A stretch of 64,000 nt of DNA from Gaiellaceae bacterium (GTDB taxonomy: Bacteria; Actinomycetota; Thermoleophilia; Gaiellales; Gaiellaceae): contig DATBQM010000018.1 of NCBI GenBank assembly GCA_036560805.1, forward strand, positions 3,494-67,493. The letters are read 5' to 3'. A program made the position numbers and the translations under genes. This document shows positions 37,600-52,798 of this stretch, piece by piece; position 1 is the first letter of the stretch; every line of letters begins with the position of its first letter. The notes under the pieces are model-generated. The model was given only the letters and a program-made list of their open reading frames with translations, was not told where the DNA came from and did no database searches.

Positions 37600-37714
37600 T
37601 CTGCCTGTTCAGACGCGTTCTGGTTGGAAAAGTTGACTCTGCCAACGCGTCGGCGTATCCGGCACGAACCGGCGTGCGTTCACTGAGGATGCAACGGTCG
37701 ACGGGGGCGCCTCG

Positions 37715-39088
37715 GTGGCGAGCGCGCTAGATCAACGTAAGCGGAGACGTCGTCGTCCCCGCACGCGCGTAGACACGACCCAGGCCGCGAGCCCGCGTCT
37801 CTTGCGGCCGTATTTTCGGGCGCTTGGGCCCGGGCTTGTGACCGGAGCCTCCGACGACGACCCCTCGGGGATCGCGACCTATTCGCAGGTCGGCGCGAGT
37901 TTCGGCTTCGGCCTGCTCTGGACGACGCTCCTGACCTTTCCGCTGATGGCGGCCGTGCAGGAGATTTGCGACCGCACGGCGCTCGCCACCGGGAAGGGGC
38001 TCGGCGAGCTTGCGACCGTGCGGCTCGGCACTCGAGCGCGAAACGTCGTGATTGCACTGGTCGGTCTGTTGATCGTGGCGAACGCTCTGAACATCGCCGC
38101 CGACCTGGTCGCGATCGGTTCCGGGATGAATCTCCTCCACGCCGGACCCACCGTCGTCTGGGCGATCATCGCGGGCGCAGGAATCACCACCCTGATCATC
38201 AGCGGCTCGTTCGAGCTGGTCGCTCGTATCTTCAAGCTCCTCTGCATCGCACTACTCAGCTACGTCGCGATGCTGTTCGTCGTCCACGTCAACTGGGCCG
38301 CTGTCGTGCGTGGAGTCTTCGTGCCGCACTTCTCACTGAGCAGCAGCTACCTCGGCCTTCTCGTCGCCGTGCTCGGAACGACGATCTCCCCGTACCTGTT
38401 CTTCTGGCAAAGCCTGCACCGGCTCGAGGAGATGCGCGAGGAGCCCGCCGGCGGTGACAAGCCGAAACCACTGTCCGGCCGGAGCAGCCGAGCGGGGCGG
38501 ATGAAAAGACGTACGAGCCGCCTCGATGTCTTCACCGGCATGGCCTTCTCGAACATCGTCATGTTCGCGATCATCGTCACCACCGCAGCAACGCTCGGAA
38601 GCCACGGAAGACACAAGATCCAAAGCGCGGCCGAGGCAGCAAGCGCGCTCCGCCCGGTCGCCGGACAAGGCGCCTCTGTGCTCTTCGCGCTCGGATTCAT
38701 CGGTGCGGGAATGCTCGCGATCCCTGTCCTCGCCGGAGCCGGCTCCGCCGGCATGGCAGGGCTGCTCGGGAAATCTGCCGGCTTCTCGCGCTCGCCGCGG
38801 CGCGCGCCCGTCTTCTACGGCCTCGTCCTGATGGGGACGCTCGGTGGCACCGCGCTCAGCCTGCTCGGCGTCAACCCGATCCGGCTGCTCGTCCTCGTCG
38901 CCGTCATCAACGGTGTCGCCGCGGCACCATTTCTGGTGCTCGTGATGCTGATCTCCGGCGACCGAAAGATCATGGGGAAGTACGTCAACGGGAAGCTCGC
39001 GCGCACCCTCGGCTGGGCGACCACGATCCTCATGGCGATGGCAGCGGTAGCGCTGTTCGCATTCGCTCACGGCGGCGGTCTCTATTAG
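37715..39088 (+). CDS. NRAMP family divalent metal cation transporter
   Basis: GPGLVTGASDDDPSGIATYSQVGASFGFGLLW carries the NRAMP DPGN-type signature variant. About 11 TM helices. The start is uncertain (GTG 37715). Confidence 0.85.
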   Translation: MASALDQRKRRRRRPRTRVDTTQAASPRLLRPYFRALGPGLVTGASDDDPSGIATYSQVGASFGFGLLWTTLLTFPLMAAVQEICDRTALATGKGLGELATVRLGTRARNVVIALVGLLIVANALNIAADLVAIGSGMNLLHAGPTVVWAIIAGAGITTLIISGSFELVARIFKLLCIALLSYVAMLFVVHVNWAAVVRGVFVPHFSLSSSYLGLLVAVLGTTISPYLFFWQSLHRLEEMREEPAGGDKPKPLSGRSSRAGRMKRRTSRLDVFTGMAFSNIVMFAIIVTTAATLGSHGRHKIQSAAEAASALRPVAGQGASVLFALGFIGAGMLAIPVLAGAGSAGMAGLLGKSAGFSRSPRRAPVFYGLVLMGTLGGTALSLLGVNPIRLLVLVAVINGVAAAPFLVLVMLISGDRKIMGKYVNGKLARTLGWATTILMAMAAVALFAFAHGGGLY

Positions 39089-39113: not shown

Positions 39114-39653
39114 TCAGTGGTTGTGCAGCGGGAACTTGCACGCGGCCGCCGCGTGCACGAATGCCGGCGACTGCGTGTCGAGCGCGGTCGGGAACACGAA
39201 GATCACTCCGTCGATGTCGGACACCACGCGAACGCCGGCGAGGCTCGACGGGACCGATGTCCCCGGGTCCGGAAAATCGGGGACGCCGTGCCGGCGCATG
39301 CACTCCGCGGCCTTCACCATCTGCGTCAGCCACTGTGTCGTGGGGTGCGTGTGCAAGCCTGGGGCGAGTCCGCCGCCGCTGGGCAGGAATTTCGCGCACT
39401 TCGCGTGCGCCGTCGTGAATCCGGGCGACGAGGGATCGACTCCACTACCCGTGCGGAAGAGGAAACCGCCGGAGCTCGGGTCCGGGAAGTTGGGCTCGCC
39501 GTTGGTGCGCATGCACGCGGCGAACTTCAGCAAGCTCTGCTGCAACTGCGCTTGGCTCGGCGCCGCCCCGAGGCTCGGGACCGGCGTCGGCTTCGATCCG
39601 CCGCAGGCAGCCAGCCCGATGACGGCGCCCGCCGCGAGTAACGCGAGCGTCAT
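39114..39653 (-). CDS. Lipoprotein with two CMRxxG-x3-FPDP...C modules (paralog 1 of 5)
   Basis: Lipobox VIGLAAC|GG. Module 1 is FAACMRTNGEPNFPDP...AHAKCAKFLP. Module 2 is AAECMRRHGVPDFPDP...AAAACKF. Confidence 0.8.
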   Translation of the reverse strand: MTLALLAAGAVIGLAACGGSKPTPVPSLGAAPSQAQLQQSLLKFAACMRTNGEPNFPDPSSGGFLFRTGSGVDPSSPGFTTAHAKCAKFLPSGGGLAPGLHTHPTTQWLTQMVKAAECMRRHGVPDFPDPGTSVPSSLAGVRVVSDIDGVIFVFPTALDTQSPAFVHAAAACKFPLHNH

Positions 39654-39663
39654 GAGTGGCGGG

Positions 39664-40242
39664 TCAGTGGCCGGCGTTGTTGATCGCCTCTCTCACTTTC
39701 GCCGCCGTGAGCCAGCCGTGCGACGCAGGCAGGCACGCCTGCACGACATGCAGAACTGCGGGCGAGTGAACGTCGACGCCCTGCGCCTGCACCATCTCGA
39801 CCGACAATCGCCCTTGCGCGTTCGGATCGGGGAAGTTGGACAACCCGTGAGTGCGCATGCAGCGCGCGAACGACAGTTCGGCCGCGAGCTGCGCCTTCGA
39901 CGGGGGCGTGTCCGCGTTCGGTCCGCTTGGGAGCAGATGACCGCAGGCGTTCATGGCCGTCTGGACCTTCGGATTCGACCCGTAGTTGTGGACCGTCAGC
40001 TTGACGTTGCCCCCGGCGAGATGCTGCGGGTCGGGGAAGCTCGGCACGCCGTTGGACCGCATGCACTGCGAGAAGGCGAGCAGCTGGTTCTGCGACGCCG
40101 CTTCGTTGGTGCTCGTGGAGGTCGTCGTCGTCGATGCGACGCTCGCAACCCCTGACGGGCTGCTGCCGCCGCCGCAGCCGGCTGCGAACAGCGAGAACGC
40201 GGCTATCGCGCCGACGGAGACGATGAGTGGGCGAGAACGCAT
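39664..40242 (-). CDS. Lipoprotein with two CMRxxG-x3-FPDP...C modules (paralog 2 of 5)
   Basis: ATG at 40242. Lipobox SLFAAGC|GG. FSQCMRSNGVPSFPDP...MNACGHLLP and FARCMRTHGLSNFPDP...VVQACLP. The 655-aa ORF in the track is an off-target N-terminal extension. Confidence 0.8.
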   Translation of the reverse strand: MRSRPLIVSVGAIAAFSLFAAGCGGGSSPSGVASVASTTTTSTSTNEAASQNQLLAFSQCMRSNGVPSFPDPQHLAGGNVKLTVHNYGSNPKVQTAMNACGHLLPSGPNADTPPSKAQLAAELSFARCMRTHGLSNFPDPNAQGRLSVEMVQAQGVDVHSPAVLHVVQACLPASHGWLTAAKVREAINNAGH

Positions 40243-40256
40243 GTCGGTCCTTTCGG

Positions 40257-41450
40257 TCACACGGTTCGGAGGGCTTCGGTTGGAGAGAGTCGCGCGGCGC
40301 GGATGGCCGGCAGGAGCCCGGCGACTGCACCGATGAAGACGGCGGCGACGAGGCCGCCGGCCCACGCGGTCGTCGGGACGACGGTGGTCCAGTGCTTGAG
40401 GTGGGCGTAGACGGCGGTGGAGACCGCGCCTGCGGTGACGCCGACCCCGCCGCCGATGAGGGCGAGCAGGATCGCTTCGGAAAGGAACTGCGTGCGGATG
40501 TTTCTCTTCGTTGCACCGAGCGCCCGGCGAAGCCCGATCTCGCTGCGTCGCTCGAGGACGCCGATGAGCATGATGTTCGCGACGCCGACGGCGCCGACCA
40601 GCAGTGAGACGGCCCCGAGGCCGAGGAAGAGACTGTTGAGCGCGCCCTGCGTCTGGGCGCGGACCGTGAGCGCGAGCGAAGGTTGGCTGACGTTGACCTC
40701 GTTCGGCGCCTCCGGGTTCGCGGTCGCGCCGAGCACCGACTGCACGGCCGCCGTCTGGCTCGTCACCGAGCGGACATAGATGGTCGTCGGGTGCCCGTCG
40801 AAACCGAGGTAGCGCTTCGCAGCCGCGAAGCCGACGAGGACGCTCGAGTCGATCTCGGGGGCGAGCGCGGCGGAGTTGAGGATCCCGCCGAGGTAGAACC
40901 ACATGCCGCCGAGCCAGATGCGCTCGCCCGGGTAGATTCGGTCGACACCCAGCCGTTGCGCTGCGGCGTAGCCGAGCACCGCGACCGGCTGTCGCGCGGT
41001 GGCGGCGTTGAGGAAGCTGCCGGCGGCCACTGTTGCGCCGACCGTCTGCGGCAAGCCGAGGCTCGCGGCCTGGACGGACAAAGCGTTCGTGTTGACGGCG
41101 GGGATGAGCGGGCTCCTGTAGACGTTCGCGCTCGTCGACCCCGTGTACTGCACCTGGTCGACGGGGCCGATGCGCGCGATCATCCCCGGCGCAGCCAGCG
41201 GAAGCTCGGCGGTCTGCCCGAACAACGTCTGTCCGTTCTGAACCGTCAGCAGGTTGGTGCCGAGCTTGTCGATCTCCGCGAGCAGGCCCGCCTGCGACGA
41301 CGAGGAAAGACCGAGCACTGCGACGATCGCCGCGACGCCGATCGCGATTCCCAATGCGGAGAGCGCCGCGCGCATGCGACGCGTGCGCAGGCCGACGCTC
41401 GCCACGCGGGCGAGGTCGGACGGCCGAAGCCGCGGCGACTCGATGATCAA
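40257..41450 (-). CDS. ABC transporter permease, MacB/FtsX type
   Basis: N-terminal TM helix, a ~230-aa extracytoplasmic domain, and a C-terminal FtsX 3-helix bundle (ERRSEIGLRRALGATKRNI). Confidence 0.9.
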   Translation of the reverse strand: MIIESPRLRPSDLARVASVGLRTRRMRAALSALGIAIGVAAIVAVLGLSSSSQAGLLAEIDKLGTNLLTVQNGQTLFGQTAELPLAAPGMIARIGPVDQVQYTGSTSANVYRSPLIPAVNTNALSVQAASLGLPQTVGATVAAGSFLNAATARQPVAVLGYAAAQRLGVDRIYPGERIWLGGMWFYLGGILNSAALAPEIDSSVLVGFAAAKRYLGFDGHPTTIYVRSVTSQTAAVQSVLGATANPEAPNEVNVSQPSLALTVRAQTQGALNSLFLGLGAVSLLVGAVGVANIMLIGVLERRSEIGLRRALGATKRNIRTQFLSEAILLALIGGGVGVTAGAVSTAVYAHLKHWTTVVPTTAWAGGLVAAVFIGAVAGLLPAIRAARLSPTEALRTV

Positions 41451-42871
41451 CGCGGTGTGACGACGAGCGCGAACGCCGTGCTCCTCGATGTGCCGCGGAC
41501 GGCTGCCGTGACGGCGAAGCCTCCCGCGGTGCCGCCGGCGGTGAACGAAGGGGCGACCGCGATGCCGTTTGCGTTCGTCGCCACACGGGCGACGCGACTC
41601 GGATGCTTGTGCGGACGCTTGAACGAGCCACTCGCTCCCTCCGCGGGAGCCCTGAAGACCACGACGGCGCCCTTGACGGGATTGCCGTGCTTATCGGAGA
41701 CGGTGACCGCGAGCGCGACGTCGAAGCGAGTGCCGACGACCGTCGACGTGCCTGACGCCGCGCCGGCGCCGATCGTGTACGGCGACGCCGCGAGGTTCGT
41801 CAGCGTGAACGCGAGGGACGCCGCCCCGGCTGTGGAGGCGGTGGCCTCGAATTCGCCTGCCGTCTTGTCTGCGATGAGCCCCGGCGAGATCGCGCGTCCC
41901 TCCGTGTCGGTGAGCGCGGTCGCCTGCGCGTCCCCGCCGATGAAGCTCGCGCCGGCGCCGTTGTCGGCGGCCGCGATCGCGAACGTGACCGTCGCCCCCT
42001 CGACCGGCTGTCCCGTTGCGTCGACGACCCGAGCCGCCAGCCGGTCGCGGTAGCTCGCGTCCACGGTGGCTGTCGGATCCTTGGGTGTCACACGGGCGAG
42101 CGTCATCGCGGCGGCGTGGTTGTCGAGTGCGAACAGCGCCACGCTCGAGAGCCCGTCGGTCGATGCGGTGGCGGCGAACTTGCCCGGCACGCCGTTGGCC
42201 AGAAGCGGCGGCGCGGTCGCGACACCGTCGGCGTTCGTGACGGCGCTCGCCGGTCCGGCGCCAAGGAACATCGCGCCCGCGCCGGTCGCACCGGGGACGA
42301 GGGCGAAGCTCACCGTGGCGCCCTGGACGGGTGCGCCGTTCGCATCTGTGATCCGCACCTGCAGCGGCTGCGCATACTGGGAGTTCACCGCAGCCTCCTG
42401 TGTGCTCGACCCCTCCGGCGCGATCGCAGCGGGTAGGCCGTTGGCGGTGTTGCTCAGTTCGATGCCGACGGTGCCGTAATCGGAATGCGCGTCGACCGCG
42501 TAGTCGCCGACAGTGAAGTTCGCGGTGAAGGGCGGCGCGGTCGCCAGTCCCTCGGAGTCGGTGCCGACGTAGGCCTCGCGCGATCCGCTGCTGGCAAAGA
42601 TGCCGCTCGCCCCGCTGCCGGGAGCGTCGAAGTTGACCGTGACGCCGGCGAGGTTCCCCGTGAGCGGGCAACCGTTCGTGTTGGCGAGCCTCACCTGCAG
42701 GCTCTGCCCGAACTCCTTGCCGAGCTGGGCCTGCTGGCCGCTGCCGCCCGTGAGCACGAGCTCGTTCGGAGCGTTCGACGTCGGGCATGCGCTTGTGGCC
42801 CCGCGCGCGCTGCCTCCAGCGGCGGCGAATACGACCGTGACGACTGCGCCGAGAGCGAGCACGCGCTTCAT
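41447..42871 (-). CDS. Secreted protein with four Big_1-like (invasin/intimin-type Ig) repeats
   Basis: ATG at 42871 with a GGAGGAG RBS. Signal peptide [20 protein letters not shown]. Four ~100-aa repeats follow the pattern [22 protein letters not shown]...[11 protein letters not shown]...G.F.ATAS. Its ends overlap both neighbours by 4 nt. Confidence 0.75.
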
Positions 42872-43557
42872 GTCGACTCCTCCTTGCCACTGTCCGATAC
42901 GACGCGCCCGTCGAGCAGCGCGATCCGGCGGGGGAAGCGCGCTGCGATTTCGTGGTCGTGGGTGATCACGACGATCGTCGCTCCCTCGGCGTTGAGCTCG
43001 TCGATCAGCGCCATGATCCCCTGGCTCGTCGCGCTGTCGAGATTGCCGGTCGGCTCGTCGGCGAGCACGATCGCCGGCCGCCCGACGAGTGCGCGCGCGA
43101 TCGCCACGCGCTGACGCTCTCCGCCGGAGAGCTGCGTCGGCCGGGAGTGCAGACGATCGCCCAGGCCGACGCGCGTGAGCGCTTCTGCTGCGCGCTCGCG
43201 CCGCTCTTCCACGGGCACGCCCGCGTACAGGAGCCCGTCGGCGACGTTCTCGAGCGCGCTCGAGTGCTCGGCGAGGAAGAACTGCTGGAACACGAACCCG
43301 ATGCGTGTCGCGCGCACCGCGGCCAGTTCGCGATCGGACAGCTCCGCGACGTCGAGCCCGGTGATCGCGACACGGCCGGACGTCGGCCGCTCGAGCGTCC
43401 CCATGAGATGGAGCAGCGTCGACTTGCCCGAGCCCGACGGCCCGACGATCGCCACCAGCTCGCCTGCGCGCACGCGGAAGCTCACGCCCTGCAGAGCGGC
43501 GAAGGGAGGATCGGATCCATACGTCTTGGTCGCGGAGTCGAGCTCGAGCGTCGTCAT
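42868..43557 (-). CDS. ABC transporter ATP-binding protein (MacB-type)
   Basis: ATG at 43557. [30 protein letters not shown], and [12 protein letters not shown]. Confidence 0.9.
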
Positions 43558-44951
43558 TCGGCCGGCACCACCACGCGCTGCCCGGCTGCAAGCCCCGACC
43601 CGCTCACCTCGACCGTCCCCGCGGCGTCGTCGAACAGCCCGACGCTGACGCCGACGAGCTGATGCACACCCGTTGACGCGACTTCCTCCACCGCATACCC
43701 ACCGCCTGCAAGGGCCACGAGAGCGTTTACCGGGATGGCGAGCACGTTGCGAACCGTTGCCGTCGTGATCGAGACGTCGACCGGCGCCTGGTCGAGCCGT
43801 CCCGTCGCTGCCGCATGGTCGGGGGCGACGTCCACCTCGATCGTCGGCGAGCTCGAGCCCCCGCCGTTCTGGTCGTTCGCTGCAGTCGCCACGGTGCCGA
43901 CCAGAGAGACATGTCCCGGCGTCGTCGAGTTGTCCGGGAGCGTGATGAGCACCGGGTCGCCGACCTTGATGCTCGTCTGCTGCGACGCGTCGAGGGCGAT
44001 CGTCACCACGCGACGAGTCGAGCTGATGCCCAGCACGGGCCCTGCCTGCACCGGCGAGCCTTGGGTCGGAGTGACGCTCGTCACGCGTACCGGTCCCGGC
44101 TCGAACACGAGCGAGCCGAGCGGTAGCTGCCCGGTCGCCGACACGTGATGTTGCGACTGGAATCGCTCGATCGCAATCGTCGTCGACGCCGTGAACGCGT
44201 CGCCGCTCGGCGCCCCGTAGCCGCGCAGGTCTCGATTCAGCTCGGCGACGTCCGGACCGGCCGGCATCCCCGGGATGAACGCGCGCGAAGCCGGCACGCC
44301 GCCGTACAAGAGGAACGCGGGCGCAGCGTTGATCGCGTACAGCGGCTGACCGGCGTGGACGATCTGCCCGACCTTCGGCAGCATCGTGTACACCGCGTCC
44401 TGCCCGTACGTCGCCGCCGATTCCTCGCCTTGCACGAGCGTCGCCTCCGCCGCCGCGACGGCGCGCTCGTCCGCCTGCACCTTCCCGGTCGCGGCCGTGA
44501 CGCTCTGGTGGTCCGCCGTCAACGCCTGGGAGTCGCCTGCGCACGGGCCTGTGCCGCTCTCGGCGGCGTTGCCGCCGCGACAGTCGATCGCGACCTTGCG
44601 CCGGTCGGCGTCCAGGGACGCCTGAGCCTGCGCGAGCGCACGCTCGTCGTCGGACGCGGTCTGCTCGGCCGATGCCGTCGACTGCTGCGCTTGCTCGAGG
44701 GTGGCCGGCGCCGTCCCGCTCGGCACCGACACGGTCGAGGCGCCGGCGTAGCCGAGCGTGGCGCTCACCTGCGTCTGCTGGGATAGATCCATCCGCTTCA
44801 CCGTCGTGATTGCCGTCGCAGCGCCGTTGTCGGAGACCCCGCTCGCGGCCGGCGAGCTCGACGCGAAGGGATCGGCGACCGCCACCGCAACTCCGGCGAC
44901 GAGCAGCACCGCGGCGCCTCCGGCCACGAGTCGCTTGCGCGCGCGCGTCAC
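43554..44951 (-). CDS. MacA/HlyD-like periplasmic adaptor with an inserted peptidoglycan-binding (PG_binding_1-like) domain
   Basis: N-terminal TM helix and a coiled coil ([15 protein letters not shown]...). [15 protein letters not shown]...[23 protein letters not shown] is the PG-binding segment. The C-terminus has beta-barrel/MP-domain-like segments. Confidence 0.8.
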
Positions 44952-44955
44952 GGAC

Positions 44956-45558
44956 TCACGGACCCTTGAACGGCATGTACTTCCGGCAGGCCTGCTGCGC
45001 TCTCTGGAAGGTCGGGTTGTCCGGGGCGAGATCGCTGCCCGGATGGACTGCGATCTGCAGGCCGCCGTTGGACGGATCGGGGAAGTCCTTCAGCCCGTGC
45101 GCGCGCATGCACGCCGAGAAGGCGAGCAGCTGCTGCTGGCGCTGCGCGATCTGCGCCGGGGTCGGCCGGCCGCCGTTCGGGAGCAGCTTCGAGCAGGTCG
45201 CCTGGGCGGACCGAAATCCCGGCGAGCCCGGGTCGATTCCCATGCCCGAGTGAATCGTGATCAAGCCCTGGCTGTTCGGATCGGGGTAGCTCGGGAGCCC
45301 GTGCTTGCGCATGCAGGCGGAGAACTTCTCGCCGTCCGCAGCGTCGACCCTCATCGAGAGTTGGAACTGGCCACCGCCGCCGCCGGGAGGGCCGAACGGC
45401 TTGCCTCCCGATCCCGAGTTGCTCTGCGTCGTCGTCGAGGCGACAGTCGGTGAGGAGTCGGCGAGGTTCGCGACCCCTGGTGAGTGCCCACCGCCGCCGC
45501 ATCCGGCCGCGAGCAGCGCGAGAGCGCCGGTCGCGCCGATGGCTGCGAAGGAGCGCAT
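44956..45558 (-). CDS. Lipoprotein with two CMRxxG-x3-(F/Y)PDP...C modules (paralog 3 of 5)
   Basis: Lipobox ALLAAGC|GG. FSACMRKHGLPSYPDP...AQATCSKLLP and FSACMRAHGLKDFPDP...AQQACRKYMP. Confidence 0.85.
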   Translation of the reverse strand: MRSFAAIGATGALALLAAGCGGGGHSPGVANLADSSPTVASTTTQSNSGSGGKPFGPPGGGGGQFQLSMRVDAADGEKFSACMRKHGLPSYPDPNSQGLITIHSGMGIDPGSPGFRSAQATCSKLLPNGGRPTPAQIAQRQQQLLAFSACMRAHGLKDFPDPSNGGLQIAVHPGSDLAPDNPTFQRAQQACRKYMPFKGP

Positions 45559-45637
45559 GCCGAAGAAATAGCTCCGCTTCGGTTACGGCGGGGGAACAGA
45601 ACCTGTTACTTGCGCGTAACCCGCCCTCCGGCATCCT

Positions 45638-46303
45638 TTGTCGATGCGGGTTCTCGTCGTCGAAGACCACAAGGAGCTCGCCGCCACCATCGCGGTCGGG
45701 CTGCGCCGCGAGGGAATGGCGGTCGACATCGCCTTCGACGGCGAGGACGCGTTGCGGCACGCAGCGGGAGACAGCTACGAGGTGATCCTGCTCGACCGCG
45801 ACATACCCAAGATCCACGGCGATGACGTGTGTCGCGCCCTCGTCGCGCGCAGGTCGCGCTCCCGCGTGCTCATGCTCACTGCCGCCGACGCGATCGAGGA
45901 CCGGGTCGACGGACTGGGCCTCGGCGCCGACGACTACCTGCCCAAGCCGTTCGCGTTCGCGGAGCTCGTCGCACGCATCCGCGCGCTTGCCCGTCGCGAT
46001 CAGGTCGAACGCTCGCCGGTCCTCGCCCGCGGCGATCTCCGCTTCGACACGGTGCAGCGCGTCGCGACCCGCGCCGGTCGCCGGCTCGAGCTGAGCAGCA
46101 AGGAGCTCGCGGTGCTCGAGCTCCTGCTCGCCGCCGGCGGCGCACCCGTCCCGACCCGCGAGCTGCTCACGCGCGGCTGGGACGAATACGTCGACCCCGA
46201 CGGGAACGTCGTCAAGGTCACAATCAGCCGGCTGCGGCGCAAGCTCGGCGACCCGCCGATGATCGAGACCATCCCCCACACCGGTTACCGCATCAGCCCG
46301 TGA
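45638..46303 (+). CDS. OmpR/PhoB family response regulator (TCS 1)
   Basis: RVLVVEDHKEL...VILLDRDIPKIHGD...GADDYLPKPF. Winged-helix C-terminus ...VKVTISRLRRKLG...IETIPHTGYRI. The start is TTG 45638 or ATG 45644. Confidence 0.9.
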   Translation: MSMRVLVVEDHKELAATIAVGLRREGMAVDIAFDGEDALRHAAGDSYEVILLDRDIPKIHGDDVCRALVARRSRSRVLMLTAADAIEDRVDGLGLGADDYLPKPFAFAELVARIRALARRDQVERSPVLARGDLRFDTVQRVATRAGRRLELSSKELAVLELLLAAGGAPVPTRELLTRGWDEYVDPDGNVVKVTISRLRRKLGDPPMIETIPHTGYRISP

Positions 46304-47475
46304 CGATCAGGCTTCGACTCACGCTCATCTACGGCGGGCTCTTCCTCTGCTCGGCGGCCGCGCTGCTCGCGATCACGTACGTGCTCGTCAACCACCAATA
46401 CACGAGCACGTTCTTCGTCAGCTCCGGCCGACGGGCGCTGATCGCCAAGGCATTCACCGCCAAGGGCCCGCTCGGCGTCGGCCCCACGCCGAAAGGATTC
46501 GTGCTGCCGCTCGGCCCGAAGGCGGTTCTCACCAACTCGAAGCTCGCGGTCGCCGCTGCACAGGGACAGTCGGACGCCGCCGTGCACAAGCTGTTCGTCG
46601 ACTCCGCCTTCGCGCTCGCGGTGATGGCGGTGATCTCGCTCTGGCTCGGCTGGGTGATCGCCGGACGCGCCTTGCGCCCGCTGCGGACGATCACCGAGAC
46701 CGCGCGGGAGATCTCCGCGAGCAGCCTCCACCGCCGGCTCGGCCTCGCAGGGCCGGACGACGAGCTCCGGCAGCTCGGAGACACCGTCGACGGATTGCTC
46801 GGCCGCCTCGAGACGTCCTTCGAGGCGCAGCGACAGTTCGTCGCCAACGCGTCGCACGAGCTGCGCACGCCGCTCACGCTCGAGCGCACCCTGCTCGAGC
46901 TCGCGCTGAGCGATCCGAACGCGAGCATCGAGTCGTATCGGCACACGTGCGAGCAGCTCCTCGCCGTCGGCGAGCAGCAGGAACGGTTGATCGAAGCGCT
47001 GCTCACGCTCTCGCGCAGCCAACGCGGCGTCGACAGCCATCAACCCGTCGACCTCGCCGCGATCGCTTCGGCCGCCGCAGCCGCTGTTGATCACGACGGC
47101 CTCGTCCTCGACACGACGATCGAACCTGCGCACACGACCGGCAATCCACGTCTGGTCGAGCGGCTCGTGGCCAACCTCGTCGGCAACGCAATCCAGCACA
47201 ACGTGGAGAGCGGAACCGTCACTCTCACGACCGAGACTCGCGGTCGTCGCGCAGTTCTCACGATCGCGAACTCCGGCCCGAGGATTCCGCCGGGCGAGCT
47301 CGACCGGCTCTTCCTGCCCTTCCAACGACTCGAGGGGAGCCGCACCAACAGCCAGGGGCTCGGCCTCGGTCTCTCGATCGTCCGCGCGATCGCCGAGGCG
47401 CATCACGCCACCCTCACCACCGACGCCCCTGCCGACGGCGGCCTCCGCGTCCAGGTGAGCTTCCCGAGCTCATGA
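46300..47475 (+). CDS. Sensor histidine kinase (TCS 1)
   Basis: GTGA overlap with the RR gene. Two TM helices flank a ~75-aa extracytoplasmic loop. HAMP domain, H-box FVANASHELRTPL, N and G boxes NAIQHN...GLGLGLSIV. Confidence 0.9.
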   Translation: MTIRLRLTLIYGGLFLCSAAALLAITYVLVNHQYTSTFFVSSGRRALIAKAFTAKGPLGVGPTPKGFVLPLGPKAVLTNSKLAVAAAQGQSDAAVHKLFVDSAFALAVMAVISLWLGWVIAGRALRPLRTITETAREISASSLHRRLGLAGPDDELRQLGDTVDGLLGRLETSFEAQRQFVANASHELRTPLTLERTLLELALSDPNASIESYRHTCEQLLAVGEQQERLIEALLTLSRSQRGVDSHQPVDLAAIASAAAAAVDHDGLVLDTTIEPAHTTGNPRLVERLVANLVGNAIQHNVESGTVTLTTETRGRRAVLTIANSGPRIPPGELDRLFLPFQRLEGSRTNSQGLGLGLSIVRAIAEAHHATLTTDAPADGGLRVQVSFPSS

Positions 47476-47991
47476 CCCATTCGGATGCGTCCTGGCGTAC
47501 GCGTCATAGGCGGAATTCGAAGGCATGTAGGGCGGTCGGTACTTCCCGCACGCCGCGTTCGCGGCCTGGAACTTCGGCGAGCCCTGGTCGATTCCGACGG
47601 TGGCGGGATCGGGTATGCGACCGGTGCTGTCGGGATCGGGAAAGTTCGGGACGCCGTGCGCGCGCACGCACCGGGCGTAGCTCAGTCCCTGAGCCTTTTC
47701 CTGCTGGAGCTGGGCCGCGTTGGGCGGCTTCCCACCGTTCGGGAGCAGGTGCTGACAGGCGCGCTGAGCCGACTGGAATCGCGAGCTGGTAACGCCGAGC
47801 TCCTGCACGCTCTCCTTCGGGATCACGCCGCCGCTGCCGGGATCGGGGAAGTTCGACACGCCGTTCGAGCGCATGCACTGAGAGAAGACAAGCGGTCCAC
47901 GACTCCCCTGCACCGACACCGAGGGACGTCCGCCGCAGGCCGACGCCACAAGGGCAATCGACGCGGCGAGGATCGCGGACGCGATTCTCAC
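47470..47991 (-). CDS. Lipoprotein with two C(M/V)RxxG-x3-FPDP...C modules (paralog 4 of 5)
   Basis: GTG at 47991 (GTGA overlap with paralog 5). Lipobox ALVASAC|GG. FSQCMRSNGVSNFPDP...AQRACQHLLP and YARCVRAHGVPNFPDP...ANAACGKY. Confidence 0.8.
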   Translation of the reverse strand: MRIASAILAASIALVASACGGRPSVSVQGSRGPLVFSQCMRSNGVSNFPDPGSGGVIPKESVQELGVTSSRFQSAQRACQHLLPNGGKPPNAAQLQQEKAQGLSYARCVRAHGVPNFPDPDSTGRIPDPATVGIDQGSPKFQAANAACGKYRPPYMPSNSAYDAYARTHPNGS

Positions 47992-48467
47992 GGCAGGCCG
48001 AGCGCTTTCCGCGCGTGCTTCTCGCAGGTCGTCTCGACCGCCTGGAACTGCAGCGAGCTCGTGTCGATGCTCGGCGGCAGTGTCTGTCGGCCGAGATGCG
48101 TCGGATCGGGGAAGTCGGGATATCCGTGAGCGCGGACACACGCGGCGACCTGCACGCCGAACACGACCTTCTGCTGCCGCTGCTGCGGCGTCGCGGTGCC
48201 CCCGCTCGAGAGCAGGTGCTCGCATTCGTCGTTCGCCGTCGACGAGATCTGCTTCGAAACACCCGCGCTGAACGACGGGAAGTTGCCATCAGGGCCCGGG
48301 TCGGGGAAGCTCGGCACGCCGTGCGAGCGCATGCAGTGCGCAAAGCTGAGCGCCGACTTCACCGGCGGCTGCGCCGCTCGGCCCGCGGGCGAACCGCCGC
48401 ATGCGGACACGAGAAGCGTGAGGGCGACTATTCCGACCAACGCAGGGATCACGCCGTCGATGATCAC
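47988..48467 (-). CDS. Lipoprotein with two C(M/V)RxxG-x3-FPDP...C modules (paralog 5 of 5)
   Basis: GTG at 48467 (or 48452). Lipobox TLLVSAC|GG. FAHCMRSHGVPSFPDP...NDECEHLL and VAACVRAHGYPDFPDP...VETTCEKH. Confidence 0.8.
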   Translation of the reverse strand: MIIDGVIPALVGIVALTLLVSACGGSPAGRAAQPPVKSALSFAHCMRSHGVPSFPDPGPDGNFPSFSAGVSKQISSTANDECEHLLSSGGTATPQQRQQKVVFGVQVAACVRAHGYPDFPDPTHLGRQTLPPSIDTSSLQFQAVETTCEKHARKALGLP

Positions 48468-48495
48468 GCGGGCTTGACGACAGCCGCAGGAAGCG

Positions 48496-48515
48496 CCGAT
48501 GAAAATCCGATGAAA
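48496..48515. promoter_or_regulatory. Direct repeat CCGATGAAA x2 with 11-bp periodicity; candidate OmpR-type response-regulator box
   Basis: Copies at 48496-48504 and 48507-48515, in the 98-nt divergent region between lipoprotein paralog 5 and RR 2. Confidence 0.35.
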
Positions 48516-48565
48516 GCGTCCTCGCGGTTCGCTTCCGGAGGCAGGGTTGAGCGACACTGCGTCGC

Positions 48566-49252
48566 GTGAGCGACGGAGCGTCGATCCTGGTCGTCGAGGA
48601 CGACGAGCAGATCGCGGAGTTGATGCGCGACTTCCTGGAGGCCGAGGGCTTCCTGGTGCGGCACGCCGCAAGCGGACGTGAGACGAGCGAGCAGCTCGAG
48701 CGGGGTCGTCCCGACCTGGTGCTGCTGGACGTGATGCTGCCCGACGAGTCGGGCTTCGAGATCTGCCGTCGACTGCGCCGTGACTCGACCGTGCCGGTGC
48801 TCTTCCTGAGCGCCCGCGACAGCGACGCGGACAAGATCCGGGGACTCGGGCTCGGCGGCGACGACTACATCGTCAAGTCCGCCACCCCGGCAGAGGTGGT
48901 CGCCCGCGTCAAGGCGGTGCTACGGCGCACTTCCGCGTCCGACGCGCGCGAACGGCTTCGCTTCGGCGAGCTCGAGATCGACCTTGCCGCGCACGAGGTC
49001 AGTTGCGCGGGGCGGCTGGTCGAGCTGACCGCGCGCGAGTTCGATCTGCTGCGCGTCCTCGTCGAGCATCCCCGGCAGGTGTTCAGCCGCGACCAGCTGT
49101 TCGAGCTCGTCTGGGGCTCGTTCGGCGACCGCAGCGCGGTGGCGGTGTACATCGCCCGCCTGCGGCAGAAGATCGAGGCCGAACCGGCGAGGCCGCGTTA
49201 CATCGTCACCGTCTGGGGAGCCGGCTACCGGCTCGATCCCGGCGGCACATGA
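48566..49252 (+). CDS. OmpR/PhoB family response regulator (TCS 2)
   Basis: ILVVEDDEQIAELM...LVLLDVMLPDESG...GGDDYIVKS. Winged helix LTAREFDLLRVL...VYIARLRQKIE...IVTVWGAGYRL. Confidence 0.9.
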   Translation: MSDGASILVVEDDEQIAELMRDFLEAEGFLVRHAASGRETSEQLERGRPDLVLLDVMLPDESGFEICRRLRRDSTVPVLFLSARDSDADKIRGLGLGGDDYIVKSATPAEVVARVKAVLRRTSASDARERLRFGELEIDLAAHEVSCAGRLVELTAREFDLLRVLVEHPRQVFSRDQLFELVWGSFGDRSAVAVYIARLRQKIEAEPARPRYIVTVWGAGYRLDPGGT

Positions 49253-50592
49253 GACGACCACCGATCCGCATCCGGGCGTTCATCCTCGGCGCCGTCCTCG
49301 TCCTGGTGATGGCGCCGACGCTCGCCGGCGGGACAGGCTGGCTGATCGAACACGACCACCAACGGGCGGGAATCCACAAGCGGCTGAACGCCGCTGCCGG
49401 CTACCTCACCTCCCATCGCGCGACGCTGCACGAGCAGGCAACCGTCCAAGGATTCACACGACTGACCGAACGGCTCGATCTGCTCGCGCAACTGGTCATC
49501 ATCTCGACAAGCCCGCCCGAGAAGGATCCGATCTTTATCAGCCCGGCCCTCGACCTGGGAAAACAAGGCAAGCTCCCGCCCGGCCGGGACGTCGACCGCC
49601 GCCTCATACGAGCTGGATCGCCCAAGTCGCGGGCGATCTTGGTCACCGATCTCTACTATCGACCCGCCTCCCGCACCACCCCGGCTCTCGTCGCGCTCCT
49701 CAGCGGAGTCATCGCCCTCCTCGCCTCGCTCGCGCTCGTGGTCTGGCTCGCCGGCCGCTGGATGGTCGCGCCGCTGGCCGGATTGAGCGCGCAGGTCGAC
49801 AAGGTCGCCGGCGGCGAGCTGGCGATCGTCGTGCCGCGCAGCCGGATCGGCGAGGTCGCCAACGTCGCGCAGGCCGTCGAGGGAATGACGGCCGCCCTCG
49901 GCGAGAGCGCGCAACGACGAGCCGAAGCGGAGGAGGCGAGACGGTTCCTCGTCACCAGCATCGCTCACGACCTGCGCACGCCACTGTTCGCGCTCCGCGG
50001 ACACCTGCAGGCGATCGGCTCCAGGCTCGGCGACCCGGCCATGCACCTCGAGCGGGCAGAAGCGCGAGCAGACGCGCTCGAACGGCTGATCGGCAATCTC
50101 TTCGCGTACACGCGCGACGACTACGAGCAGCCCGCGCCGCGGCTCGAAGACGTCGCCGTCGGCGAGCTGCTGCAGGAGGTCGCTGCCGGGCTCGAGCACG
50201 CAGCACGGCTCGGCGACAACACGTTCGACCTCGACGGCGACGCGATACTCAGCGTCCGTGTCGACCGCGACAGAGTGAAGCGCGCCCTCACCAACATCCT
50301 CGACAACGCAATCCGCTACAGCCCTCGCGGGACGCCGATCCACGTCAGCTGGGCAGCCGTCGATGAGCCGACGGTCCGGATCACGGTTCACGACCACGGC
50401 CCCGGGATCGACCCCGTCCTCCTCCCCCACGTCTTCGAGCCCGGCATCCGCGGGACCTCGAGCGATGGAGGAGCCGGGCTCGGGCTCACGATCGCGAAGC
50501 GGCTCCTCGAACACCAGCACGCCACGCTCACCGCCCACAACGAACCAGGAGGAGGAGCAACGCTGGTCCTCACCCTCTCGCGCGGGACTTAG
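49249..50592 (+). CDS. Sensor histidine kinase (TCS 2)
   Basis: ATGA overlap with the RR gene. Two TM helices flank a ~130-aa extracytoplasmic domain. HAMP domain, H-box SIAHDLRTPL, and NAIRYSP...GAGLGLTIA. Confidence 0.9.
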   Translation: MRRPPIRIRAFILGAVLVLVMAPTLAGGTGWLIEHDHQRAGIHKRLNAAAGYLTSHRATLHEQATVQGFTRLTERLDLLAQLVIISTSPPEKDPIFISPALDLGKQGKLPPGRDVDRRLIRAGSPKSRAILVTDLYYRPASRTTPALVALLSGVIALLASLALVVWLAGRWMVAPLAGLSAQVDKVAGGELAIVVPRSRIGEVANVAQAVEGMTAALGESAQRRAEAEEARRFLVTSIAHDLRTPLFALRGHLQAIGSRLGDPAMHLERAEARADALERLIGNLFAYTRDDYEQPAPRLEDVAVGELLQEVAAGLEHAARLGDNTFDLDGDAILSVRVDRDRVKRALTNILDNAIRYSPRGTPIHVSWAAVDEPTVRITVHDHGPGIDPVLLPHVFEPGIRGTSSDGGAGLGLTIAKRLLEHQHATLTAHNEPGGGATLVLTLSRGT

Positions 50593-51512
50593 GCGTCGAG
50601 CACGGCCGCCGAGCGTGCGGCCGCCTTCAGCGCCTGCCGTTCGGGCGGAATCCTGACCACCTTCCACGCGAGCCCGCAGCGTTCGAGCGCGGAGATGAGC
50701 CAGCCGCCCGGATCGATCTCGCCGGTTCGCAGACCGTGGAACGCAGACGAGGGAAACGCGTGGTGGTTGTTGTGCCAAGACTCGCCGAACGACAGCCAGG
50801 AAAGCCACCAGACGTTGCGCGACTCGTCGGTGACTGCGAAGTGCCGGCGCCCCCAGAAGTGGCAGATCGAGTTGATCGACCAGGTCACGTGGTGGAGCAA
50901 AAGGATGCGAACCGCGCCGCCCCACACGAGACCCGCGAAGAACCCGTACCAGCCGCCGATCCACGCCCAGCCGATGAGGCCGGGCACGAGGAGCGAGAGC
51001 AGGACGACCGGCACGAACAGCCGGCTGATGATGCGCAGGCCGCGGTCCTCGAGGATGTCTTTCGCATACTTGCTCGGTGCGGCGGTTGCGTCCGCGTCGA
51101 AGAGCCACCCGGTGTGGGCATGCCACAGCCCCTTCAGACCTTCGACGAAGCCGTCTCCGTAGTCCGCGTGCGGGCTGTGCGGGTCGCCGCTCCGATCGGA
51201 GAACTGATGGTGCTTTCGATGGTTCGCGACCCAGCTGACGACGTTTCCTTCGACCGCCGCCTGACCGAGGATCGCGAAGGCGTACCGCACGCCGCGATAG
51301 GTCTGGAACGACCGGTGCGTGAACAGCCGGTGGTACCCGACCGTTATCCCGAGCCCGGCGAGCACGTACCCGACGAACAGGATCGTCAGCTCGCGGAGTC
51401 CCACCATGCGATCCCAGAGCAACGCGATCGCAATCGCGAGACCGATCAGCGGTAGCGTCGTCCCGGCGACGTTGGCCGCGATGCGAGCTCGGCTCATAGT
51501 CCGCTCGCTCAT
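50589..51512 (-). CDS. Membrane fatty acid (acyl-CoA/acyl-lipid delta-9 type) desaturase
   Basis: Three His boxes: HRLFTHRSF, HRKHHQFSD and HNNHHAFP. Confidence 0.9.
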   Translation of the reverse strand: MSERTMSRARIAANVAGTTLPLIGLAIAIALLWDRMVGLRELTILFVGYVLAGLGITVGYHRLFTHRSFQTYRGVRYAFAILGQAAVEGNVVSWVANHRKHHQFSDRSGDPHSPHADYGDGFVEGLKGLWHAHTGWLFDADATAAPSKYAKDILEDRGLRIISRLFVPVVLLSLLVPGLIGWAWIGGWYGFFAGLVWGGAVRILLLHHVTWSINSICHFWGRRHFAVTDESRNVWWLSWLSFGESWHNNHHAFPSSAFHGLRTGEIDPGGWLISALERCGLAWKVVRIPPERQALKAAARSAAVLDA

Positions 51513-52762
51513 GCCGCCTGATGCTTCCGGAAGGCGAGAACGGCATTGTGGCCGCCGAAGCCGAAGCTGTTGCTCAAAGCAACGCGAAGTGGCATGCGGC
51601 GCGACGTGTTCGGCACACAGTCGAGGTCACAGGCCGGATCGGGACTCTCGTAGTTGATCGTCGGCGGCACGGCATCGTCGCGAAGCGCGAGCACGGTCAC
51701 TGCAGCCTCGACCGCTCCCGCGGCGCCGAGGCAGTGACCGGTCGCGCCCTTGGTCGAGGAAACCGGGGTCGACCGCGCCTTGTCCTCACCCAATGCGAGC
51801 TTGATAGCCGCCCATTCTGTCGCATCGCCGACGCTCGTCGAGCTGGCATGAGCGTTGACGTAGTCGACCTCGCTTGCGTCGAGACCACCGTCCGCGAGTG
51901 CAGCCCGAACAGCACGAGCTTGGCCGACACCGCCCGGATCCGGCTCGGTCATGTGAAAGGAATCCGAGCTGACGCCGTAGCCGACGAGCTCGGCGTAGAT
52001 CGTCGCGCCTCGCGCGCGCGCGTGTTCGAGCTCCTCGAGGACGAGGACGGCTGCTCCCTCACCCATGACGAATCCGTCCCGTTCGGCATCGAAGGGCCGA
52101 CTGGCCCGAGCCGGGTCGGCGTTCCGGCGCGACAGGGCGCGCATCGCCGCGAAGCCCGCCATCGCGATCGGTGTGATGCCCGCCTCGCTCCCGCCGCAGA
52201 ACATCACCTCGGCCCGACCGAGTCTGATCGCGTCGTAGCCCTCCCCGACCGCCATCGCCGAAGCGGCGCACGCCGTGCACGGTGCCCCGACGGGACCGCG
52301 CGCTCCCAACTCCATCGAGACCCAGCCCGCGGCCATGTTCGGCATGAACGACGTCACAAGGCTTGGATGGATGCGCGCCGCATCGGCTCCGGCGCAACAC
52401 GCAGCGAGACTCGCCACACCGCCCTGTGCGGTCGCGATCGAAGCGCCGACACGGTCCGGTGCGCGACTGACGTCGATCGACGCGTCGGCCTCCGCCATGC
52501 GCGCCGCGGCGACGGCAAGCTGCGCGAAGCGATCCGTCCGGTGCAACGACCGGCGATCGAGCCATTGCCCCGGCTCGAAGCCCTGCACCTCGCAGCCGAT
52601 CGTCACCGGATGGCGCCCCGTATCGAAGGCCGTCAGCGACGCGCCGCTTCCCTCGCCCGCCAGAAGACGGCTCCACGTCGTCTCCATGTCGCCCCCGAGC
52701 GGTGTCACGGCGCCGAGACCCGTCACGGCCACCCGACGCTCGTGTTCGACGGAGACAGACAT
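51509..52762 (-). CDS. fabF: Beta-ketoacyl-ACP synthase II family (FabF/KasA-like)
   Basis: RVAVTGLGAVTPLG, active-site TACAAS, two His motifs (NAHASST, SSTKGATGHCLGAAG), and the end motif NSFGFGGHN. Start at ATG 52762. Confidence 0.9.
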   Translation of the reverse strand: MSVSVEHERRVAVTGLGAVTPLGGDMETTWSRLLAGEGSGASLTAFDTGRHPVTIGCEVQGFEPGQWLDRRSLHRTDRFAQLAVAAARMAEADASIDVSRAPDRVGASIATAQGGVASLAACCAGADAARIHPSLVTSFMPNMAAGWVSMELGARGPVGAPCTACAASAMAVGEGYDAIRLGRAEVMFCGGSEAGITPIAMAGFAAMRALSRRNADPARASRPFDAERDGFVMGEGAAVLVLEELEHARARGATIYAELVGYGVSSDSFHMTEPDPGGVGQARAVRAALADGGLDASEVDYVNAHASSTSVGDATEWAAIKLALGEDKARSTPVSSTKGATGHCLGAAGAVEAAVTVLALRDDAVPPTINYESPDPACDLDCVPNTSRRMPLRVALSNSFGFGGHNAVLAFRKHQAA

Positions 52763-52798
52763 AGCCCCTGGACCGTAGCTGCCCCCTCCAGGCACGCG

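Follow-up and report, generated by a model that had tools for sequence, protein, structure and literature searches.

The window analysed here is a 64-kb, high-GC (~69%) stretch of contig DATBQM010000018.1 from a Gaiellaceae bacterium, and its closest relatives are soil-metagenome Actinomycetota of the Gaiellaceae/Thermoleophilia type. Between positions 39114 and 50592 it carries five lipoprotein genes (LP1 to LP5), a MacAB-like ATP-binding cassette (ABC) pump with an adaptor, and two two-component systems (TCS), each made of a response regulator (RR1, RR2) and a histidine kinase (HK1, HK2). The best explanation of this region is that it represents two copies of a widespread, previously undescribed actinobacterial envelope module. 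The lipoproteins form a new family, which has no Pfam or NCBIfam model and no relative in the PDB, and whose members are annotated 'hypothetical protein' in RefSeq.

A preliminary description of the region, made from the DNA alone, had claimed five lipobox-bearing open reading frames (ORFs), each with two copies of a module of ~55 amino acids, that is 10 modules and 20 conserved cysteines. All five ORFs were found on the minus strand at the positions it gave, and a motif scan recovered all the modules and their cysteines. When C-x-R-x-x-G-x-x-x-[FY]-P-D-P was searched as a regular expression in the six frames of the 64 kb, 10 occurrences were obtained, two per lipoprotein ORF and none elsewhere; outside the five ORFs, [FYW]PDP was absent from the six-frame translation of the window. 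The repeated pattern is thus real, and far exceeds what chance would produce. Alignment of the ten modules showed the C, R, G, P-D-P and C positions to be invariant, with pairwise identities of 23-44% to the first module, and the two cysteines of a module lie 37-54 residues apart. Of the consensus first proposed, the C/R/G/PDP/C positions are therefore invariant, whereas its F at -3 and its F-x-x-A are present in most modules but not in all. No positional signature separated module 1 from module 2 (mean identities 0.49, 0.49 and 0.47).

Lipoboxes were scored as a signal peptide ending in [LVI][ASTVI][GAS]C, with the Cys at +1. Such a cysteine was found in LP1 (LAAC17), LP2 (AAGC23), LP3 (AAGC20), LP4 (ASAC19) and LP5 (VSAC23), and is followed in each protein by exactly four more cysteines. 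LP1 to LP5 carry the signature of bacterial lipoproteins, substrates of Lgt and LspA, and their lipidation is predicted. The exact start codons of LP1 and LP5 are less certain, because the n-regions of their signal peptides have no positive charge; the LP4 and LP5 products (173 and 159 amino acids) came out the same from the independent gene caller used in public assemblies. An S-P-G-V-A-x-[VL] motif with a serine/threonine-rich stretch was observed right after the lipid or transmembrane anchor in many members, among them LP2 (residues 24-45), LP3 (residues 21-50) and the database representatives P0130, P0177, P0185, P0223 and P0230. This segment may be a tether or an O-glycosylation region.

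The module corresponds to no named domain, in agreement with the preliminary description, which had recognised none: searches of Pfam-A, NCBIfam, PADLOC, PDB sequences and, with Foldseek, PDB structures were all negative. At the curated cut-offs of Pfam-A 2025, NCBIfam 20.0 and PADLOC 2.0, nothing was found for LP1 to LP5 (hmmscan for the first two libraries; best E-values 0.017-0.3, mostly on the signal peptide), and nine Streptomyces and Actinomyces members likewise belonged to no Pfam or NCBIfam family. Among PDB sequences, the best phmmer match had an E-value of 0.058 and concerned the signal peptide only, and the best hmmsearch match of the profile had an E-value of 0.69. An AlphaFold2 model of LP4, built with 84 homologues, is all-helical, with a mean predicted local distance difference test score (pLDDT) of 82.6, blocks of 91-98 and a confident mature part. 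Cysteines 1 to 3 are placed in it in a flanking helix of their own module, and Cys 4 one residue past the last helix. The single-module model made from the ten window copies alone (pLDDT 84.2) consists of a helix, a long loop, a short helix and a helix. Foldseek comparison with 350,542 PDB chains yielded a best E-value of 3.4 for full LP4, with TM-scores not above 0.21, and of 6.1 for the single module. A CHCH/twin-CX9C hairpin was considered and rejected, given the 37-54 residues between paired cysteines and the single pair per module; the CX9C and COX17 matches in Pfam are below threshold (12.9 against 26.4 bits and 14.8 against 24.9 bits). A full-text literature search found no description of the lipoprotein family or of its module.

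The family is large. LP4 alone retrieved 2,888 cluster representatives (90% identity) at E≤1e-3, all unnamed or 'hypothetical' and without a Pfam domain. The ten-module profile, searched against 1.84 billion representatives (50% identity), matched 9,249 at E≤1e-3, of which 4,942 reached E≤1e-10. Two matched stretches were present in almost every one of the 150 best profile matches: 144 had exactly two modules, 129 had exactly four cysteines after the anchor, and a lipobox-like motif preceded the first module in 126. In 8 more, an N-terminal transmembrane helix following a charged cytoplasmic tail takes the place of the lipobox. Membrane tethering, twin modules and four cysteines are, as far as the sequences tell, the stable features of the family. 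The four cysteines are invariant in the 84 LP4-type homologues; as these are exported proteins of Actinomycetota with an even number of cysteines, each module is likely to contain one disulfide (in LP4, the pairs would be C39-C79 and C108-C148). Six three-module representatives look like fused calls of tandem genes. P0121, P0122 and P0182 have an internal second signal peptide or lipobox, or a start in mid-module, and are more likely read-through or fused calls than true three-module proteins. LP4-type orthologues are conserved throughout, inter-cysteine loops included, and paralogues share scaffold residues only; this pattern is better explained by partners or ligands particular to each paralogue than by rapid diversification.

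The genomic surroundings of the family were examined in the best 80 of at least 567 loci matching LP4, from a scan in which each GTDB species was represented by a single genome. These loci, 23 of which are truncated contigs, were translated as stop-to-stop ORFs and searched with a hidden Markov model (HMM) of the module and with the neighbour proteins of the window. The loci come from Acidimicrobiia, Thermoleophilia (Gaiellales, Solirubrobacterales) and Actinomycetes (Streptosporangiaceae, Nocardioides, Galbitalea, Acidothermaceae), and all but one are labelled Actinomycetota. A total of 194 lipoprotein ORFs was obtained, 169 of them with two modules, and 48 of the 80 loci contained two to nine lipoprotein genes. 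The layout that recurs is a kinase-regulator pair divergent from one to four lipoprotein genes, followed by the adaptor, the ATPase, sometimes an Ig-repeat gene, the FtsX-type permease and sometimes one more lipoprotein gene. A regulator lay within 1 kb of a lipoprotein gene in 58 loci and a peptidoglycan-binding adaptor in 50; 44 loci had both, and 16 had neither. Gene densities per 10 kb, compared at up to 2.5 kb and at more than 6 kb from a lipoprotein gene, were 1.92 against 0.15 for regulators, 1.87 against 0.06 for kinases and 1.15 against 0 for adaptors. The lipoprotein run leads directly into adaptor and ATPase genes in 33 of the 62 divergent regulator-lipoprotein units. Linkage to OmpR-type TCS genes and to MacB-type ABC and peptidoglycan-binding adaptor genes, which the preliminary description had proposed to check, is thus very strongly conserved in homologues.

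The exception in taxonomy is locus L002 (JAGWRZ010000081.1), from a metagenome-assembled genome labelled Acidobacteriota. It is syntenic with the whole module of the window, shares its repeat motifs and both TCS types, and encodes an LP4 with 63% identity. Since every other match is from Actinomycetota, a binning or taxonomy error, or a transfer, is likely.

All-against-all BLAST clustering, in which the stop-to-stop ORFs of high-GC DNA produced one giant single-linkage cluster, revealed no other family recurring in more than 15 of the 80 loci. MFS, SDR, ECF sigma and GAF kinase genes and two clusters without Pfam match were rejected as partners, being present in at most 15 loci and explained by lineage synteny. 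A rule assigning subfamilies to positions was also rejected: relatives of LP1 to LP5 hold no fixed place in the module.

The reverse test started from the adaptor. A tblastn search of a plasmid collection was chosen, because a protein search with the adaptor listed only relatives at 72% identity or more; it gave 49 records, mostly large linear Streptomyces replicons, from which nine non-redundant loci were opened. In 9 out of 9, a 'hypothetical protein' of 142-227 amino acids is encoded directly upstream of the adaptor, often overlapping it, and the adaptor is followed by the ABC ATPase and permease genes. All nine upstream proteins have four cysteines in two pairs, and eight have a lipobox; for the ninth, from locus L087, the annotation gives no signal peptide. 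With E-values of at most 2e-8, the module HMM built from the window detects seven of them, in which the motif takes the form C-[ML]-R-x-x-G-[IVL]-x-[MV]-x-D-P. Its matches to the other two and to a third paralogue are weak (E 0.004-0.013); these lack PDP and make up a divergent subgroup, so that the true family is wider than the HMM counts suggest. Members of this Streptomyces subgroup (L090, 4238-4831; L091, 4082-4741; L092, 4064-4747) keep the lipobox and twice C...C, with the motifs Y-x-x-C-L-x-x-x-G ... C-x-x-K-[LM]-P-L-Q-P and ... C-x-x-E-A-F-G-G-K. A divergent kinase-regulator pair was present in seven of the nine loci, and in L090 a regulator-kinase pair lies upstream on the same strand. 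Carriers include Streptomyces clavuligerus (on its megaplasmid; pSCL4 locus, WP_230864297.1), S. anthocyanicus, S. cadmiisoli and Actinomyces oris (WP_009407646.1), and the same canonical layout was seen in S. chartreusis and Nonomuraea gerenzanensis. We conclude from this test that the lipoprotein is a regular component of the pump/TCS module, and no peculiarity of the window. On the S. cadmiisoli plasmid (L091, 1-2934), the lipoprotein, adaptor, ATPase and permease genes stand beside a very large non-ribosomal peptide synthetase gene and an S8 peptidase gene, with no adjacent TCS; this set may be a self-resistance copy in a biosynthetic cluster.

A regulatory link between the two divergent operons is suggested by direct repeats. 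In the 186 nt upstream of the 62 regulator genes facing a lipoprotein gene, 50% of the regions contained an 8-mer repeated directly at exactly 11 bp, one mismatch being allowed, against 5.8% of random segments of the same loci. At offsets of 8, 9, 10, 12, 13 and 14 bp, repeats were found in 5-8% of the regions. Direct repeats with a period of 11 bp are the classical sites of OmpR/PhoB-type regulators. Under strict criteria, 8 of 31 regions had a second pair, mirrored and facing the lipoprotein gene, against 0 in the control. The sequence of the repeat is constant within a regulator type and differs between types. For the RR1 type, repeats of the form GTnAC-N6-GTnAC gave three matches in the LP3-RR1 intergenic region, against 0.05 expected, and occur nowhere else in the window; they are kept in L002, L078 and L018, and the sequence carried by RR1-type loci is TGTTACC-N4-TGTAACC (GTTAC-N6-GTAAC). 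The RR2-type repeat, CGATGAAA-N3-CGATGAAA, is kept in all 8 RR2-type loci, and another regulator subgroup has GAAAC-N6-GAAAC with a mirrored TGTTTC pair. The mirrored sites at 45582-45620 are putative RR1 binding sites for both divergent promoters, and 48497-48515 is a putative RR2 binding site. We infer that each regulator controls its own operon and the divergent lipoprotein operon, with the pump where there is one. Hexamers resembling a -10 box were seen by eye 6-9 nt before the regulator start codons; so close to the start, they suggest leaderless or short-leader transcripts.

The identity of the pump was examined by profile scores. The permease matches PF12704 (MacB_PCD; 64.1 bits, cut-off 27, E 3e-17) and PF02687 (FtsX; 70.1 bits, cut-off 25.5, E 2.2e-19), the ATPase matches ABC_tran with 123.6 bits, and the adaptor matches HlyD_3 (29.7 bits, cut-off 22.2). 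The PG_binding_1 insertion of the adaptor scores 21.7 bits, just below its 23-bit cut-off; close homologues carry PF01471, and relatives in RefSeq are named 'peptidoglycan-binding protein'. By its MacB_PCD plus FtsX permease, its cognate ATPase and the HlyD-type adaptor of the same predicted operon, the pump is classed as MacAB-like. The best NCBIfam matches of the ATPase are LolD, MacB and FtsE, all under curated cut-offs. Identity with the E. coli MacB equivalog was rejected (NCBIfam MacB 110 and 228 bits, cut-off 966), as was identity with LolCDE (LolD 228.4 against 307.75 bits, lolCE 31.3 against 362.45 bits). No TolC-type exit duct is expected in a monoderm. An Ig-repeat protein with Big_1 domains, without NCBIfam match, is encoded between the ATPase and permease genes in 17 of the 80 loci; it is confined to a subset of modules.

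Response_reg and Trans_reg_C in both regulators, and HAMP, HisKA and HATPase_c in both kinases, are all over the Pfam cut-offs. RR1 and HK1 are most like VanR-O/VanS-O and the heavy-metal subfamily, and RR2 is like MtrA/PhoB, all well under the equivalog cut-offs; membership of the heavy-metal subfamily (CusRS/CopRS/CzcRS) was rejected (RR1 177 against 279.2 bits, HK1 170.8 against 292.55 bits). The extracytoplasmic loop of the kinases in related loci is 50-87 amino acids long in 30 of 36 cases, and 115-131 in the other 6. Short loops, of ~65 amino acids, leave no room for a PDC/Cache sensor, in keeping with reliance on an accessory protein or on the transporter.

Table 1. Genes and direct repeats of the lipoprotein/pump/TCS region, numbered from the first letter of the window.
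Feature	Position	Strand	Basis or location
LP1, twin-module four-Cys lipoprotein, 179 aa, 14-aa insertion in module 2	39114..39653	-	
LP2, twin-module four-Cys lipoprotein, 192 aa, S/T-rich tether after lipobox	39664..40242	-	
MacB-type permease, MacB_PCD extracytoplasmic domain and C-terminal FtsX domain	40257..41450	-	Pfam
Secreted Ig-like repeat protein, Big_1 x3	41447..42871	-	Pfam
ABC ATPase, MacB/LolD/FtsE type	42868..43557	-	ABC_tran 1.1e-35
Membrane-fusion-type adaptor, HlyD_3 with inserted PG_binding_1	43554..44951	-	Pfam
LP3, twin-module four-Cys lipoprotein, 200 aa, leads pump operon	44956..45558	-	
RR1-type repeat TGTTACC-N4-TGTAACC	45604-45620	+	LP3-RR1 intergenic (45559-45637); mirrored copy 45582-45598 (-)
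RR1, OmpR/PhoB-type response regulator	45638..46303	+	Response_reg + Trans_reg_C
HK1, HAMP-HisKA-HATPase sensor kinase, extracytoplasmic loop ~72 aa	46300..47475	+	
LP4, twin-module four-Cys lipoprotein, 173 aa	47470..47991	-	
LP5, twin-module four-Cys lipoprotein, 159 aa, leads LP5-LP4 operon	47988..48467	-	
RR2-type repeat CGATGAAA-N3-CGATGAAA, 11-bp period	48497-48515	+	LP5-RR2 intergenic (48468-48565); unique in window
RR2, OmpR/PhoB-type response regulator	48566..49252	+	Response_reg + Trans_reg_C
HK2, HAMP-HisKA-HATPase sensor kinase, extracytoplasmic loop ~120 aa	49249..50592	+	

Features of the region are listed in Table 1. Gene order and junctions, described beforehand as 4-nt overlaps or gaps of at most 14 nt, agree with the coordinates: gaps of 10 nt (LP1/LP2), 14 nt (LP2/permease) and 4 nt (adaptor/LP3), and 4-nt overlaps at permease/Ig, Ig/ATPase, ATPase/adaptor, LP4/LP5, RR1/HK1 and RR2/HK2. 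This is consistent with the seven minus-strand genes from LP1 to LP3 forming one operon, and the same order is kept in many genomes. A consensus scan of the region for promoters and terminators gave counts no higher than in shuffled sequence; one terminator-like site falls inside the ATPase gene, on the minus strand. Elsewhere, LP4-type genes lie immediately upstream of the adaptor, and RR2-type systems face lipoprotein runs continuing into the pump (for instance in L014), so that the arrangement in the window appears to be a composite, in which LP4 and the pump have been separated by an insertion of the first TCS and LP3.

At their 3' ends, HK1 and LP4 overlap convergently by 6 nt (47470-47475), and HK2 and a fatty-acid desaturase gene by 4 nt (50589-50592). 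Neither place has a terminator-like site, and antisense read-through is therefore possible. Directly past HK2, three membrane-lipid genes occupy 50589-53776 on the minus strand (fatty-acid desaturase, beta-ketoacyl synthase and an MprF-like LPG_synthase_TM protein). These lipid-remodelling genes could be functionally related to the adjoining envelope stress module. The LP1 end of the cluster (36739-39088) is flanked by a minus-strand gene for an AraC-family regulator and a plus-strand gene for an Nramp-type divalent metal transporter, which are probably incidental, as neither recurs in the 80 related loci.

Taken together, these data lead us to a tentative reading, which has a fair amount in its favour but falls somewhat short of being probable: the lipoproteins would be ligand-capturing proteins of an inducible envelope protection module, cooperating with the pump, able to act alone, and possibly reporting to the kinase. 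Each unit consists of an OmpR-type TCS and a divergent operon headed by one or more lipoprotein genes, about half of these operons continuing into a MacAB-like pump. The kinase, with its loop of typically ~65 amino acids, would detect an envelope-active compound or the resulting damage, and the phosphorylated regulator would bind the 11-bp-spaced direct repeats and activate its own operon as well as that of the lipoproteins and pump. Anchored on the outside of the cytoplasmic membrane, the lipoproteins would capture ligands in a paralogue-specific manner and hand them to the MacB periplasmic domain and the adaptor channel for expulsion through the wall zone; they would probably also report to the kinase. 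Where no pump is nearby, the lipoprotein alone would serve as a sequestering or feedback output. Protection against peptide toxins, exerted from the extracytoplasmic side, is a known function of adaptor-bearing MacAB-like pumps in Gram-positive bacteria (PMC5985334).

The analysis shows the family with its architecture and membrane tethering, the conserved gene linkage and the conserved repeat sites. The disulfides, the induction by the regulator, the ligand binding and the hand-off to the pump are all steps that we infer, and several points weigh against ligand capture, beginning with this status of the binding step itself. The conserved C, R, G, PDP and C look structural and point to no ligand class. 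Up to nine paralogues are found per locus, which is unusual for a simple hand-off factor. A pump is lacking in 29 of the 62 regulator-lipoprotein units, as with LP5-LP4 in the window, and about a quarter of the loci are pump-less, meaning that the lipoprotein needs no cis-encoded pump. Both samples are biased as well, the lipoprotein-selected one because it holds the best LP4 matches only, and the adaptor-selected one because the plasmid collection is dominated by Streptomyces. Ligand capture and its four rivals weighed below (co-sensor, pump subunit, cargo, and metal or redox handling) are not mutually exclusive.

Alternatively, the lipoproteins may be mainly co-sensors or feedback modulators of the kinase, induced by the regulator and binding its short extracytoplasmic loop, the pump being one of several outputs. 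Precedents are CpxP/CpxA, ZraP/ZraS and MgrB/PhoQ and, among actinobacterial lipoproteins, CseA, LpqB and AfsQ3; in cpxP-cpxRA and zraP-zraSR the divergent promoter layout also carries repeats, as it does here. The pairing of TCS and lipoprotein is the commonest of all (58 of 80 loci within 1 kb), it persists in the 29 pump-less units, tethering to the membrane is conserved, and most kinase loops are too short for a canonical PDC/Cache domain. Accessory lipoproteins of actinobacterial kinases are, moreover, an established theme (PMC9739842). However, the known ones are encoded 1:1 in the TCS operon, whereas here 1-4 (up to 9) paralogues lie in a divergent operon. Lipoprotein and adaptor genes are coupled by 4-nt gaps or overlaps, with the lipoprotein gene upstream in 9 of 9 adaptor-selected loci, and at least 8 of the 80 loci have a further lipoprotein gene downstream of the FtsX-type permease, far from the TCS. 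We consider a predominantly co-sensory role possible, but rather doubtful.

It is also conceivable, although we would not count on it, that the lipoproteins are the stimulus receptors of a new four-component system spread across Actinomycetota, signalling to short-loop kinases and to the pump. If this were true, the family would be membrane-tethered, disulfide-braced and of a new fold, with a separate envelope-active molecule recognised by each paralogue and its occupancy passed on both to the kinases and to the wall-spanning pump; the arrays of up to nine would be a modular recognition repertoire for antibiotic or peptide sensing in soil actinomycetes.

The conserved lipoprotein-adaptor order, with overlapping stop and start codons across classes, and the presence of the lipoprotein in all nine adaptor-selected loci would also suit a structural or assembly subunit of the pump, one that organises the adaptor or the MacB periplasmic domain and binds no substrate. 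The model would be YknW, the enigmatic fourth component of B. subtilis YknWXYZ, which affects the state of the adaptor (PMC5985334). Such a role is unlikely: pump-less TCS-lipoprotein loci and lipoprotein-only loci are common, several different paralogues often precede a single pump, and the operon position is not fixed for a given subfamily.

Could the lipoproteins be cargo, extracted or secreted through the wall to the surface by the MacB-type transporter? LolCDE and Aat, whose substrate is lipidated dispersin, would be the models, and the Aat system does belong to the MacB family. So does the lipoprotein-extracting LolCDE (PMC5985334); in NCBIfam, the ATPase scores best with LolD (228 bits), and cargo genes would be expected to be co-encoded with their transporter. 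But the LolD and LolCE matches are under curated cut-offs, these lineages are not expected to have an outer membrane as a destination, and in 8 of 150 representatives a transmembrane anchor replaces the lipobox, which argues for retention in the membrane. Conserved tethering, by lipobox or by transmembrane helix, together with the common pump-less units, speaks against a substrate role, and makes this proposal very unlikely. Least probable of all is a module handling a metal or redox signal through a Cys/Met/His motif (C-M-R-x-H-G), with a CusRS/CopRS-like TCS and a CusF-like hand-off: RR1 and HK1 have cztR_silR_copR and cztS_silS_copS among their best NCBIfam matches, weak sub-threshold CX9C and COX17 matches exist and an Nramp transporter gene adjoins the cluster, but the RR1 and HK1 scores are far under their cut-offs, Met and His vary across modules (M/V, H/N; C-[ML]-R-[EKD]-x-G in Streptomyces and Actinomyces), the four cysteines are more simply read as structural disulfides, and the 80 loci show no recurrent P-type ATPase, multicopper oxidase or CopC/D.

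Under any of these readings, an unannotated lipoprotein family is present in almost all such actinobacterial modules examined. TCS-regulated MacB-type pumps are a main route by which Gram-positive bacteria intrinsically resist peptide antibiotics, and the family bears on how stimuli are perceived in such modules and on the role of the adaptor in cells without an outer membrane. Defining it would improve the annotation of thousands of 'hypothetical proteins', and could bring to light, in the main antibiotic-producing phylum, a new way to sense or neutralise compounds that act on the envelope. As it occurs in cultivable and tractable bacteria (S. clavuligerus, S. chartreusis, N. gerenzanensis and the oral A. 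oris), its role is directly testable.

In overall design, the modules resemble the lantibiotic immunity sets LanI, LanFEG and LanRK (nisI/nisFEG/nisRK), which also combine an anchored lipoprotein, a membrane-clearing ABC exporter and a TCS inducing both, the lipoprotein sometimes occurring alone; NisI is, in addition, a two-domain duplicate. The Lan modules differ by their ABC-2-type LanFEG exporter and their presence in Firmicutes, compared to a MacB/FtsX pump with adaptor in Actinomycetota. LanI has no relationship of sequence or fold with the family described here, which has no Pfam match and an all-helical, Cys-paired model. The pairs cpxP-cpxRA and zraP-zraSR offer a second parallel, in which a small helical extracytoplasmic protein with repeated motifs is encoded divergently from a TCS, is induced by it and feeds back on the kinase. 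Unlike CpxP and ZraP, the present lipoproteins have no LTXXQ motif, are lipid-anchored and Cys-paired, are often multicopy, and lead into a pump operon. The cusRS-cusCFBA locus also has a TCS divergent from an operon with a small binding protein (CusF), an adaptor and a pump, and RR1/HK1 resemble that subfamily; however, its pump is of the resistance-nodulation-division type rather than an ABC transporter, and here the subfamily scores are below cut-offs and no metal ligands are conserved.

Lipoproteins encoded with an OmpR-type TCS and thought to modulate the kinase from outside are known in MtrAB-LpqB, CseABC and AfsQ1/Q2/Q3 (PMC9739842). CseA, AfsQ3 and LpqB are single-copy and lie in the TCS operon, and LpqB is a large protein of beta-propeller type; the parallel is drawn by description only. 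As for the pump, the Gram-positive MacAB-like systems include B. subtilis YknWXYZ, S. pneumoniae Spr0693-0695 and E. faecalis AS-48EFGH (PMC5985334). Pumps of the YknWXYZ type share with the present one an adaptor binding or spanning peptidoglycan, a separate ATPase, a MacB-type permease and a co-transcribed accessory, YknW (PMC5985334). YknW is a Yip1-type membrane protein, whereas the accessory here is a lipoprotein of a new family, the adaptor has a PG_binding_1 insertion, and a dedicated TCS is encoded divergently. In BceRS-BceAB, according to the account that PMC5985334 gives of Dintner et al. (2011, 2014), an FtsX-domain ABC transporter is coupled to a TCS genetically and evolutionarily; the same account describes a minimal sensor loop in the kinase and several paralogous modules per genome, as found here. 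BceB differs by its 10 transmembrane helices and by the absence of adaptor and lipoprotein, and BceS loops are shorter than ~25 amino acids, against ~65 or ~120 amino acids and a HAMP domain in the present kinases. TCS-regulated MacB-type pumps and accessory lipoproteins are already known; the lipoprotein family, and its near-obligatory place in the module, are new.

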